Source: Escherichia coli (lineage in GTDB: Bacteria; Pseudomonadota; Gammaproteobacteria; Enterobacterales; Enterobacteriaceae). Taken from it: a stretch of DNA of 64,000 nucleotides. The notes under the pieces were generated by a model. It was not told the origin of the DNA. It saw only the letters and a list, made by a program, of their open reading frames with translations, and did not search any database. The stretch lies in NCBI RefSeq assembly GCF_003018255.1, contig NZ_CP027440.1, one strand, 5' to 3'. This document shows positions 29,319-33,353 of this stretch, in pieces. Made by a program: the position numbers and the translations under genes. Numbering within the stretch: the first letter of the stretch is position 1; each line of letters opens with the position of its first letter.

Positions 29319-29777
29319 ATGTTAGATAAAATTGACCGTAAGCTGCTGGCCTTACTACAGCAGGATTGTACCCTCTCTTTGCAGGCACTGGCTGAAGCCG
29401 TTAATCTGACAACCACCCCGTGCTGGAAGCGTCTGAAACGGCTGGAGGACGACGGTATTCTTATCGGCAAAGTCGCCCTGCTGGATCCGGAAAAAATAGG
29501 CCTCGGCCTGACCGCCTTTGTGCTGATAAAAACGCAACATCACAGCAGCGAATGGTATTGCCGCTTTGTCACGGTGGTTACCGAAATGCCAGAAGTGCTG
29601 GGGTTCTGGCGCATGGCCGGTGAATACGATTATCTGATGCGCGTCCAGGTTGCCGACATGAAACGCTACGACGAGTTTTATAAGCGTTTGGTAAACAGCG
29701 TGCCGGGGCTGTCGGACGTCACTTCCAGCTTCGCGATGGAACAGATTAAATACACCACTTCTTTACCCATCGAATAA
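29319..29777 (+). CDS. decR: Lrp/AsnC-family transcriptional regulator DecR (YbaO)
   Basis: Track ORF 29091..29777 trimmed to [16 protein letters not shown] (152 aa). Confidence 0.9.
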
Positions 29778-29806
29778 ATATCCAGAATCAGGTCAGGACA
29801 CAACGC

Positions 29807-31579
29807 GTGCGATTATTTGCTCAATTAAGCTGGTATTTCCGTCGGGAATGGCGTCGCTATCTCGGGGCTGTCGCCTTGCTTGTCATTATCGCGATGCTGC
29901 AACTGGTTCCGCCAAAAGTGGTTGGTATTGTTGTTGATGGCGTGACAGAACAACACTTTACTACCGGGCAGATCCTGATGTGGATCGCCACCATGGTGCT
30001 GATTGCCGTTGTGGTTTATCTCCTGCGTTACGTCTGGCGTGTATTGCTGTTTGGCGCGTCTTATCAACTGGCTGTTGAACTGCGTGAAGATTATTACCGT
30101 CAGCTAAGCCGGCAGCATCCTGAGTTTTACCTGCGTCATCGCACGGGTGACCTCATGGCTCGTGCGACCAATGACGTCGATCGCGTCGTGTTTGCCGCCG
30201 GAGAAGGGGTGCTGACGCTGGTGGATTCACTGGTAATGGGCTGCGCTGTGTTGATTATGATGTCTACGCAAATTAGCTGGCAGTTGACCTTATTTGCCCT
30301 GTTGCCGATGCCAGTGATGGCGATCATGATTAAGCGCAACGGCGATGCCTTGCATGAACGCTTTAAGCTGGCGCAGGCGGCGTTTTCCAGTCTTAATGAC
30401 CGCACCCAGGAAAGCCTCACCAGTATCCGCATGATCAAAGCTTTTGGTCTGGAAGATCGCCAGTCGGCGTTATTTGCCGAGGATGCCGAAGATACCGGCA
30501 AAAAAAACATGCGGGTGGCGCGTATTGATGCTCGTTTCGACCCGACCATCTATATCGCGATTGGTATGGCGAACTTGCTGGCGATTGGCGGCGGTAGTTG
30601 GATGGTGGTGCAGGGCAGTTTAACGCTGGGCCAGCTCACCAGTTTTATGATGTATTTAGGTCTGATGATTTGGCCAATGCTGGCGCTGGCATGGATGTTT
30701 AACATAGTGGAACGTGGTAGTGCTGCGTACAGCCGCATTCGCGCGATGCTGGCGGAAGCGCCGGTGGTGAATGATGGTAGCGAACCCGTGCCGGAAGGTC
30801 GTGGCGAACTGGATGTAAATATTCGCCAGTTCACGTATCCGCAGACTGACCATCCTGCGCTGGAAAACGTCAATTTCGCCCTGAAACCCGGTCAGATGCT
30901 GGGTATTTGCGGGCCGACTGGTTCCGGCAAAAGTACCCTGTTGTCGCTCATTCAGCGTCATTTCGACGTCAGCGAGGGGGATATCCGCTTTCATGATATT
31001 CCTCTGACGAAGTTACAACTCGATAGCTGGCGTAGCCGCCTGGCGGTAGTTAGCCAGACACCGTTCCTTTTTTCCGACACCGTAGCGAACAACATCGCGT
31101 TGGGTTGCCCGAATGCCACCCAGCAAGAGATTGAGCATGTCGCGCGGTTAGCCAGCGTGCATGACGATATTTTGCGTTTACCGCAAGGTTACGATACAGA
31201 AGTGGGCGAGCGCGGCGTGATGCTTTCCGGTGGGCAAAAACAGCGTATCTCCATTGCTCGTGCGTTATTAGTCAACGCGGAAATCCTCATCCTTGATGAT
31301 GCGCTTTCGGCAGTAGACGGACGCACAGAGCACCAGATCCTGCATAACCTGCGGCAGTGGGGGCAGGGAAGAACGGTAATCATCAGCGCCCATCGCCTTT
31401 CGGCACTGACGGAAGCCAGTGAAATTATTGTGATGCAGCACGGACATATCGCCCAACGTGGCAATCATGATGTGCTGGCACAACAAAGCGGCTGGTATCG
31501 CGATATGTATCGCTATCAACAACTGGAGGCGGCGCTCGACGACGCTCCGGAAATTCGCGAGGAGGCCGTTGATGCGTAG
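29807..31579 (+). CDS. mdlA: ABC exporter, fused permease/ATPase MdlA
   Basis: Track ORF 590 aa starting at GTG; Walker [10 protein letters not shown], signature LSGGQKQR. Confidence 0.93.
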
Positions 31580-33353
31580 TTTTAGCCAACTGTGGCCGAC
31601 TCTCAAGCGTCTGTTAGCGTACGGTTCGCCGTGGCGTAAACCGCTGGGGATTGCGGTCATAATGATGTGGGTTGCGGCAGCGGCAGAAGTCAGTGGGCCG
31701 CTGCTTATCAGCTATTTTATCGACAATATGGTAGCGAAAAATAACCTGCCGTTGAAAGTGGTTGCAGGGCTGGCTGCGGCGTATGTTGGGCTGCAACTGT
31801 TTGCCGCCGGGCTACATTACGCGCAGTCGCTGCTGTTTAATCGGGCGGCAGTAGGCGTAGTGCAACAGTTGCGTACCGACGTGATGGATGCTGCGTTACG
31901 CCAGCCATTAAGCGAGTTTGATACCCAACCTGTCGGGCAGGTGATTTCCCGCGTCACTAATGACACTGAAGTGATCCGCGACCTCTACGTTACCGTAGTG
32001 GCAACTGTCCTGCGTAGCGCCGCACTGGTGGGCGCGATGCTGGTGGCGATGTTCAGCCTCGACTGGCGAATGGCGCTGGTGGCGATAATGATTTTCCCGG
32101 TGGTGCTGGTGGTAATGGTGATATATCAGCGTTACAGCACGCCGATTGTCCGTCGTGTGCGCGCTTATCTGGCGGATATCAACGACGGCTTTAATGAAAT
32201 TATCAATGGCATGAGCGTTATCCAGCAGTTCCGTCAGCAGGCGCGATTTGGCGAACGTATGGGGGAGGCCAGTCGATCACACTATATGGCGAGGATGCAA
32301 ACCCTGCGCCTCGACGGTTTTCTGCTGCGTCCGCTGCTGAGTCTGTTTTCATCGCTCATTCTTTGTGGATTGTTGATGCTGTTTGGCTTCTCCGCCAGCG
32401 GTACCATTGAAGTGGGCGTACTGTATGCGTTTATCAGCTATCTTGGGCGGCTTAACGAACCCTTAATCGAACTGACCACACAACAGGCGATGCTGCAACA
32501 GGCTGTTGTTGCTGGTGAGCGCGTGTTTGAGCTGATGGACGGACCGCGCCAGCAATATGGTAATGATGATCGCCCCTTACAGAGCGGCACCATTGAAGTC
32601 GATAACGTCTCATTTGCTTATCGCGATGACAATCTGGTACTGAAGAACATTAATCTCTCGGTGCCTTCGCGCAACTTTGTGGCTCTGGTCGGGCATACCG
32701 GCAGTGGTAAAAGTACCCTCGCCAGTTTATTGATGGGCTATTACCCGCTAACGGAAGGTGAGATTCGCCTTGATGGTCGTCCATTAAGTTCGTTAAGTCA
32801 CAGCGCGCTGCGTCAGGGCGTGGCGATGGTGCAGCAAGATCCGGTAGTGCTGGCGGATACCTTTCTCGCCAACGTGACGCTGGGACGTGATATCTCCGAA
32901 GAACGCGTCTGGCAGGCGCTGGAAACCGTGCAACTGGCGGAGCTGGCGCGCAGCATGAGTGATGGTATTTATACGCCGCTGGGAGAGCAGGGGAATAATC
33001 TCTCCGTCGGGCAAAAGCAACTACTGGCACTGGCACGCGTGCTGTTGGAGACGCCGCAAATCCTGATCCTTGATGAGGCAACCGCCAGCATTGACTCCGG
33101 TACTGAACAGGCGATTCAACATGCTCTGGCGGCGGTGCGTGAACATACCACGCTGGTGGTGATTGCTCACCGCTTATCGACCATTGTTGATGCCGACACC
33201 ATTCTGGTGCTTCATCGTGGGCAAGCCGTGGAGCAGGGCACTCACCAGCAACTGCTGGCGGCCCAGGGTCGCTACTGGCAGATGTATCAACTGCAACTTG
33301 CGGGCGAAGAGCTGGCAGCCAGCGTGCGTGAAGAGGAATCATTGAGCGCCTGA
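31572..33353 (+). CDS. mdlB: ABC exporter, fused permease/ATPase MdlB
   Basis: Track ORF 31458..33353 trimmed to [14 protein letters not shown] (593 aa); ATG overlaps mdlA stop by 8 nt; Walker [10 protein letters not shown]. Confidence 0.93.

Follow-up and report, generated by a model that had tools for sequence, protein, structure and literature searches.

The decR-mdlA-mdlB locus of Escherichia coli: probably one operon for an L-cysteine-sensing regulator and an asymmetric ABC exporter

When a gene for an Lrp/AsnC-family regulator stands directly ahead of two overlapping genes for halves of an ATP-binding cassette (ABC) exporter, does the regulator control the pump, and do the two halves work as a single machine? 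We asked this of decR, mdlA and mdlB, which occupy positions 29319 to 33353 of a 64-kb stretch of Escherichia coli DNA (64,000 nucleotides, nt; hereafter the window). The original prediction for this region had suspected a link between decR and mdlAB and a likely heterodimer, and had held that control of mdlAB by decR was not evident from the sequence. We consider it probable that the three genes form a single sigma-70 unit, repressed by DecR and activated by SoxS, in which coupled translation yields an asymmetric exporter. The anatomy of the locus, its conservation and its motif pattern are direct observations of this analysis; the system itself is already described, belongs to the Escherichia core genome and had its regulation published in 2024.

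The genes and their junctions are laid out as follows:

29319-29777, + strand: decR (cyuR, ybaO), ATG to TAA, 152 amino acids (aa); Lrp/AsnC-family L-cysteine-sensing regulator.
29778-29806, + strand: decR-mdlA spacer, 29 nt, with AGGA at 29795-29798, 8 nt before the GTG start.
29807-31579, + strand: mdlA, GTG to TAG, 590 aa; ABC half-transporter (transmembrane domain plus ATPase domain).
31560-31579, + strand: translational-coupling junction, AGGAGG at 31560-31565 within mdlA followed by the 8-nt overlap.
31572-33353, + strand: mdlB, ATG to TGA, 593 aa; ABC half-transporter.

The earlier coordinates, 29-nt gap and 8-nt overlap proved exact to the base, both in the open reading frames (ORFs) and in the RefSeq annotation of the best-matching E. 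coli genome, which lists the identical three coding sequences with the same lengths, gap and overlap and names the first one decR. The region is present in 5423 of 5426 complete E. coli genomes at 95-99% identity (best 99.0%). The earlier gene identities are likewise borne out by the annotation and by family matches. MdlA scores 1266.7 bits against the NCBIfam SmdA equivalog (cut-off 845) and MdlB 1183.3 bits against the SmdB equivalog (cut-off 746), both over their full length, and each subunit reaches only ~232 bits on the model of the other. Both chains combine PF00664 (ABC_membrane) with PF00005 (ABC_tran) and align over their full length to BmrC/BmrD, Sav1866, MsbA and ABCB1. DecR carries an N-terminal AsnC-type winged helix-turn-helix (residues 2-48; PF13404, 60.9 bits; PF13412, 62.1 bits) and a C-terminal AsnC_trans_reg (RAM) domain (residues 68-142; PF01037, 76.1 bits), aligns full length with the AsnC-family structure 3i4p (E = 8e-51), is 99-100% identical to the decR products of Escherichia loci and lies far below the equivalog cut-offs of Lrp (97 vs 233 bits) and AsnC (36 vs 227 bits). 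A hidden gene or island was considered and rejected: the base composition of the region is native, and Pfam gave no match for the antisense ORFs within the three genes (230, 137, 130 and 146 aa).

Three elements frame the proposed transcription unit:

29183-29208, + strand: intrinsic terminator after cof, 7-bp G+C stem (hairpin 29183-29200) and T8 run; upstream boundary of the unit.
29258-29286, + strand: sigma-70 promoter-like site, TTGTCG, 17-nt spacer, TAGAAT; a consensus match only.
33388-33425, + strand: intrinsic terminator after mdlB, 11-bp stem (hairpin 33388-33415) and T-rich tail; downstream boundary of the unit.

Several lines of evidence point to one unit: (i) in a consensus scan, 29258-29286 is the sole promoter-like site on the + strand from the cof terminator to the end of mdlB, and its -35 and -10 hexamers are conserved across related upstream sequences; (ii) the scan of 29287-33387 on the same strand returned neither a terminator-like hairpin with a real T tract nor a promoter-like site; (iii) the 29-nt spacer shows no excess of folding stability over shuffled sequence (z = +0.64), and the 77-nt stretch that holds the mdlB terminator hairpin folds at -20.1 kcal/mol (z = -2.4); (iv) no transcription start site is reported for the spacer between cyuR, as decR is named there, and mdlA (Rodionova 2024, PMC11408624), and (v) expression of cyuR and mdlA is correlated across 1035 samples, with r = 0.71 (PMC11408624). 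RNA-element explanations were tried and dropped: the interval 28900-33700 gave no credible Rfam match (one chance-level match, E = 0.69, lies under the gathering score), the spacer is unstructured, and an inverted repeat at the predicted start site, taken up below, lacks compensatory pairs. Just beyond the unit, a sigma-54-type promoter (TGGCAC-N5-TTGCA, 33466-33481) lies upstream of glnK (33534-33872) and amtB (33902-35188), which together with the mdlB terminator indicates that mdlB and glnK-amtB belong to separate units.

What is known of repression, of the cysteine effect and of SoxS dependence comes from the literature. Deletion of cyuR raises mdlAB expression, a CyuR ChIP-exo peak and in-vitro binding lie upstream of cyuR, and CyuR was concluded to autorepress the cyuR-mdlAB operon, with relief by cysteine and activation by SoxS (PMC11408624); L-cysteine is the reported effector of DecR/CyuR (PMC11408624, PMC9040844). 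The SoxS iModulon includes both mdlA and mdlB, and induction of mdlA is lost without soxS or soxR (PMC11408624). Together with the co-expression, these data settle the point that had been called not evident, and parts of the answer can be read from the DNA itself: the spacer without terminator or promoter, an operator over the -35 hexamer and complementary ATP-site motifs. Because mdlAB rises without cyuR (PMC11408624), the expression test in a decR deletion that the original prediction proposed has effectively been done, and the outcome it had named as contrary, independent transcription with no DecR effect on mdlAB, is contradicted by the same paper. The suspected link thus holds, also in view of the gene order described below.

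Three sites between the cof terminator and decR could carry this regulation:

29215-29233, - strand: marbox-like site, ACGGCACAAAATGACAAAT, 1 mismatch to AYNGCACNNWNNRYYAAAY; backward orientation, ~60-70 nt upstream of the predicted start.
29251-29273, + strand: published CyuR/DecR box, GAATAAATTGTCGCGATTTCACC; overlaps the -35 hexamer, 1 mismatch to the published consensus.
29291-29307, no strand assigned: perfect inverted repeat AGAGAA-AAAAA-TTCTCT on the predicted decR transcription start, between the -10 hexamer and the ATG; candidate second operator.

The 23-bp CyuR box, scanned in its IUPAC form GAAWAAATTGTYGYYATTTMRCC, has one match in the window where 0 are expected by chance. In all 77 loci for which upstream sequence is available it starts 68-69 nt ahead of the decR ATG, with up to 4 mismatches across loci, and its overlap with the -35 hexamer is a position that suits a repressor; the Citrobacter version was bound in vitro (PMC11408624). 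The marbox pattern has 4 matches in the window vs 1.4 expected, so the match at 29215-29233 is weak taken alone. Across 78 upstream sequences the block TTTGTCATTTTGTGCC at this position nonetheless reaches 90% conservation or more, and a SoxS site is marked there (PMC11408624); it is probably a SoxS/MarA activator site.

The two transporter genes also bear signs of a common fate. The mdlA stop and the mdlB start share 8 nt (ATGCGTAG, 31572-31579), and an AGGAGG internal to mdlA stands 6 nt ahead of the mdlB ATG; the earlier claim of coupled translation is supported by this arrangement and by the retention of the overlap among relatives (see below). MdlA and MdlB are only 27% identical, and their ATPase motifs differ in a complementary manner:

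30911-30937, 31223-31237 and 31283-31300, + strand: MdlA Walker A, LSGGQ signature and Walker B (ILILDD); Walker A and LSGGQ canonical, Asp498 in place of the catalytic Glu.
32691-32717, 33000-33014 and 33060-33077, + strand: MdlB Walker A, LSVGQ signature and Walker B (ILILDE); signature deviant, catalytic Glu502 present.

In an ABC dimer, each ATP site is built from the Walker motifs of one subunit and the signature of the other. The MdlA and MdlB defects therefore fall in one and the same site only in an MdlA-MdlB pair, which leaves one degenerate and one consensus site, whereas a homodimer of either protein would have two defective sites. The degenerate site would be formed by the Walker A and B motifs of MdlA (Asp498) with the LSVGQ of MdlB, and the consensus, hydrolytic site by the Walker A and B motifs of MdlB (Glu502) with the LSGGQ of MdlA. 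Such a layout would place MdlAB among the heterodimeric ABC exporters that have a single degenerate ATP site, the class of BmrCD, TM287/288 and LmrCD. The motif pattern is invariant in 80 of 80 MdlA and 79 of 80 MdlB sequences and recurs in the homologues of Buchnera, Listeria, Pokkaliibacter and Salinivibrio. From it we infer the physical heterodimer and the roles of its two ATP sites: with the conserved overlap, it makes a much stronger case than the overlap alone, on which the likely heterodimer had been suggested, and the parallel with the BmrC/BmrD pair strengthens that suggestion further.

How far does this arrangement extend? A genome scan with MdlA gave 80 Enterobacteriaceae loci from ~25 genera at 84-99% identity and no lower-identity matches; more distant loci were sampled by reading the contigs of representatives found in a search of 50%-identity cluster representatives. 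In all 80 Enterobacteriaceae loci a decR orthologue lies directly upstream of mdlA and mdlB directly downstream. The 8-nt overlap is kept in 78 of them, and also in a locus with MdlA at 71% identity (L081), in Salinivibrio (L082), in Pokkaliibacter (L086) and in a metagenomic locus (L087). The distance between decR and mdlA ranges from 6 to 66 nt, with a CAGGA before the start kept in the spacers shown, and the mdlA start codon is never ATG (GTG in 68 loci, TTG in 12). Farther out, the order regulator-mdlA-mdlB persists in L081, in a cmk-rpsA-ihfB neighbourhood, where the AsnC-type regulator is 79% identical to DecR; in a locus with MdlA at 66% identity beside fadM-queC (L091); and in Salinivibrio, where MdlA is 55% and the regulator 69% identical. 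The regulators of the 71% and 55% loci are, by sequence comparison, DecR orthologues. At 49% MdlA identity or less the pair occurs without an AsnC-type regulator (Pseudaeromonas, Pokkaliibacter, Buchnera, Listeria, a Bacillales group and one metagenomic lineage). The co-occurrence analysis once proposed for these genes thus finds the order in 80 of 80 Enterobacteriaceae loci and three distant ones, and its loss at 49% identity and below: the conserved arrangement is not a chance feature.

The Buchnera case is instructive. In the 417-kb genome of Buchnera aphidicola (L084, 4001-7530), mdlA and mdlB lie between lon and dnaX without decR, cdsH, glnK or amtB, a collapsed remnant of the E. coli neighbourhood; the two genes are 50 nt apart with no overlap, and the degenerate/consensus ATP-site pattern is kept. 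MdlAB is among the very few transporters retained in four Buchnera genomes (PMC3246468).

Some individual loci depart from the common layout. In L091 (604-3721, fadM-queC-decR-mdlA-mdlB) queC and mdlA are each split in two, as in a degrading, symbiont-like genome or a poor assembly. The decR gene of E. albertii NBRC 107761 is frameshifted after about codon 126 in the draft genome of this type strain (L005, ~4755), and mdlB of C. koseri NCTC10786 near codon 230 (L007, ~8450); either could be a pseudogene or an assembly error. A protein homologue search with MdlA, which returned 120 near-identical E. coli entries, added only P0019, a DecR-MdlA fusion ORF of 749 aa present in 6 E. coli contigs, whose junction peptide points to an ~11-nt spacer deletion that removed the decR stop and joined the frames.

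A low-resolution scheme of the operon may be suggested from these results. Transcription would start from the promoter at about 29258-29286 and be bounded by the cof and mdlB terminators. SoxS, possibly MarA too, would activate through the upstream marbox, DecR/CyuR would repress through the operator that overlaps the -35 hexamer, with a possible second contact at the GAGAA-N5-TTCTC repeat on the start site, and L-cysteine bound to DecR would relieve this repression, such that regulator and pump would rise together under oxidative or drug stress and in response to cysteine. Translation of mdlA would begin at its weak GTG and that of mdlB would be coupled to it through the ATGCGTAG overlap, favouring roughly equal amounts of the subunits, which would assemble into an asymmetric type IV ABC exporter. 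MdlAB is probably a pump for amphipathic small molecules, which it would expel from the cytoplasm or the inner leaflet. The case for xenobiotic efflux is indirect: the two proteins are SmdAB equivalogs, the operon is under SoxS control, and mdlAB overexpression raises, and its deletion lowers, the export of cyanidin-3-glucoside (PMC11026601). Published evidence for a multidrug role is mixed, and no tetracycline effect was seen (PMC11408624).

Several observations weigh against this scheme. The promoter scan yields 4 sites vs 4.1 expected from shuffled sequence, with no excess, and the promoter at 29258-29286 is predicted from its consensus match alone. Genomic SELEX classed DecR as a single-target regulator that binds yhaO/cyuP only and leaves its own promoter unbound (PMC5934670), and the in-vitro binding of CyuR was obtained at micromolar concentrations of a partly urea-refolded protein on a Citrobacter probe (PMC11408624). 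Deletion of mdlA, not of mdlB, gave a phenotype with cefazolin and vancomycin, and MdlA was suggested to act alone (PMC11408624). The pump is kept without decR in Buchnera and other lineages, indicating that the regulator is not intrinsic to pump function.

The alternative that survives best concerns the operator. It holds that DecR is bound mainly at the GAGAA-N5-TTCTC repeat and that conservation of the published box mostly reflects the -35 hexamer and an upstream promoter element. We regard this as possible but on balance doubtful; a milder version, that the repeat is a second DecR operator, is equally tentative, although it is the leading guess among binding partners of the motif. The repeat is unique in the window and more strictly conserved than the box: of 78 distinct upstream sequences, 64 carry it without change and the other 14 with at most one mismatch, vs up to 4 for the box. 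Its spacing is always N5 and its start always 27-28 nt before the ATG, while the bases from the repeat to the start codon, ribosome-binding region included, vary freely. Read as a 5' RNA hairpin it shows no compensatory pairs, with a covariation score under the shuffled mean, and thus looks like a site read on the DNA. It is retained in Escherichia, which has lost the neighbouring gene cdsH (see below). The repeat is not mentioned in the 2024 CyuR paper, in which the binding probe ended short of it (PMC11408624). At cyuP, a validated DecR target, the K-12 upstream region holds RGAGAA-N6-TTCTCY 208 nt before the ATG, the sole such site in 12 kb; the same stretch is without a full published CyuR box, its best match having 8 mismatches in 23 positions. 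In K-12 this speaks for an operator common to decR and cyuP, an idea retained as a hypothesis only.

Other observations temper this view. The spacing is N5 at decR and N6 at cyuP. Sequences upstream of cyuP in E. coli fall into classes, one at 99% identity or more in 4536 genomes and one at 90-95% in 802, and in Ecol_656, the one representative of the 802-genome allele, the right arm of the repeat is lost to a divergent patch, while the downstream ATTGT-N4-ATTTTCTCT stretch is unaffected. The published box has some experimental support for binding (PMC11408624), and another factor or a start-site requirement could account for conservation of the repeat. Recognition of the repeat as an Lrp site by consensus was tried and abandoned, as the Lrp scan is non-specific (57 matches vs 70 expected) and cannot discriminate, the match at the repeat being no better than chance. 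In the comparison of the K-12 cyuP upstream region (L088, 8012-8285) with L090, the one divergent genome aligned, the differences cluster in a ~60-bp patch 150-210 nt before the cyuP ATG, and the 150 nt nearest cyuP are nearly invariant. As an operator for DecR, whether the real one or a second one, the very strongly conserved start-site repeat is an inexpensive candidate to test.

A second alternative concerns the purpose of the pump. The native role of MdlAB could lie in cysteine or thiol stress and not in general drug efflux, for example in exporting cysteine or a toxic derivative, with the drug phenotypes as side effects. The pump shares an operon with a cysteine sensor and is derepressed by cysteine (PMC11408624). 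Moreover, in 72 of the loci examined, among them L020 (4334-5389, - strand) and Salinivibrio (L082, 2297-3358, - strand), decR has as its divergent neighbour a gene for a Cds1-like L-cysteine desulfhydrase (cdsH, 351-353 aa; 566 and 549 bits). Among the Enterobacteriaceae loci outside Escherichia whose upstream region is covered, only that of Trabulsiella (L039) lacks this neighbour, and the extension of cdsH out to Salinivibrio indicates that the cdsH / decR-mdlAB module is old; in Salinivibrio, DecR (69%) is also better conserved than MdlA (55%). The window and six other Escherichia loci have no cdsH, and there the decR promoter directly follows the cof terminator; that cdsH neighbours decR and has been lost from this place in E. 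coli was reported earlier (PMC5423876). Since Escherichia keeps the marbox-like site, the box and the repeat without cdsH, the function of these elements is not confined to cdsH and includes the decR-mdlAB promoter itself.

We nevertheless consider a thiol role unlikely: no experiment ties MdlAB to cysteine, neither decR nor cdsH accompanies the pump in Buchnera, Pseudaeromonas and Pokkaliibacter or the BmrCD-like pairs of Firmicutes, the nearest characterised relatives, SmdAB and BmrCD, are drug pumps, and membership of the SoxS regulon fits xenobiotic defence (PMC11408624). It is still tempting to speculate, as a combination that we hold to be less likely again, that MdlAB is the export arm of an old cdsH / decR-mdlAB cysteine-stress module in which DecR acts through an overlooked Lrp-type GAGAA-N5-TTCTC operator. 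DecR would then switch on both cysteine degradation (CdsH, CyuA) and an ATP-driven exporter for cysteine or for a reactive thiol derived from it. The linkage to sensor and cdsH from Vibrionaceae to Enterobacteriaceae and the retention of the pump in Buchnera both suggest a physiological substrate that is not an antibiotic. With the operon shared with a cysteine sensor and the old adjacency of cdsH, there is room for a physiological, perhaps thiol-related, substrate, which we would nonetheless put down as improbable.

The third alternative, proposed in PMC11408624, is that MdlA and MdlB act as independent homodimers or that MdlA alone is active. Its support is the longer lag of the mdlA but not the mdlB deletion with cefazolin and vancomycin, a phenotype that was not complemented (PMC11408624). 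An MdlA homodimer would be without the catalytic Glu in both sites and an MdlB homodimer would have two deviant signatures; in addition, both the motif pattern and the 8-nt coupling are retained in different phyla and agree with BmrCD, which is an obligate heterodimer. In the 2008 work of Matsuo, SmdA and SmdB were reportedly both needed for resistance. We thus find independent action very unlikely: the sequence argues against MdlA acting alone and for an obligate asymmetric heterodimer. Scarcely credible, finally, is the idea that mdlAB is transcribed alone with DecR as a mere neighbour without control: the single-target verdict of SELEX (PMC5934670) and a spacer whose range of lengths between genera leaves some room for signals favour it, but there is no promoter- or terminator-like site in or near the unstructured spacer, mdlAB rises in the cyuR deletion and is co-expressed with cyuR (PMC11408624), and the adjacency of decR and mdlAB is conserved as far as Vibrionaceae.

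How does the proposed single operon compare with known systems? The closest is cyuR-mdlAB of K-12 (PMC11408624), in which the genes, their order, the gap, the overlap, the operator box and the marbox-like site are as in the window; the two show allelic differences only, the box of the window being one mismatch from the published consensus. The GAGAA-N5-TTCTC repeat and the degenerate ATP site are not mentioned in the K-12 paper (PMC11408624).

SmdAB of Serratia marcescens comes next, its SmdA and SmdB equivalogs being matched over the full length and above the cut-off by MdlA and MdlB of the window. According to Matsuo (2008), SmdAB is said to be a heterodimeric ABC multidrug pump that confers drug resistance when expressed in E. 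coli. SmdA is quoted as 79% identical to MdlA, and the drug phenotypes of MdlAB, in contrast to those of SmdAB, are weak or uncomplemented (PMC11408624).

BmrCD (YheI/YheH) of B. subtilis provides the best solved relatives (PDB 7m33, 8t1p), with 497 bits for MdlA against BmrC and 397 bits for MdlB against BmrD. Like MdlA, BmrC has ILILDD and LSGGQ, and BmrD has LSSGE and the catalytic position (Gln in the crystallised mutant), to be compared with LSVGQ and Glu in MdlB. In the alignment, BmrD has an insertion of ~85 residues after its first N-terminal helix, which MdlB lacks. The bmrCD genes are controlled by a leader peptide attenuator, and the sampled Firmicute homologues have no adjoining AsnC-type regulator, unlike decR-mdlAB.

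The efflux promoters of the mar/sox/rob regulon, for example acrAB, have a marbox ahead of a sigma-70 promoter, where decR-mdlAB has a probable marbox and a promoter-like site, and mdlAB is reported to depend on SoxS; the repressor of acrAB is a divergent TetR-type protein, whereas that of decR-mdlAB is an Lrp/AsnC protein encoded by the first gene of the operon. The acrB, acrA and acrR genes lie in the same window (42189-47343), which thus holds two mar/sox-linked efflux loci 13 kb apart; a perfect match to the marbox consensus at 46696-46714 spans nucleotides 1-19 of acrR and lies 142 nt ahead of acrA.

The CcdR-CcdA/DecR-CdsH module of Pantoea and Salmonella is cysteine-inducible and its regulator is orthologous to DecR of the window; it has cdsH, which the window and the other Escherichia loci do not, and mdlAB is not discussed in the published work on it. 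Set against these systems, what is new here is modest, namely the start-site repeat and the argument from sequence that the heterodimer is obligate and asymmetric. As it stands, decR-mdlAB is of little significance; its residual value lies in these two points and in the linkage of an exporter retained by Buchnera to a cysteine sensor and cdsH.

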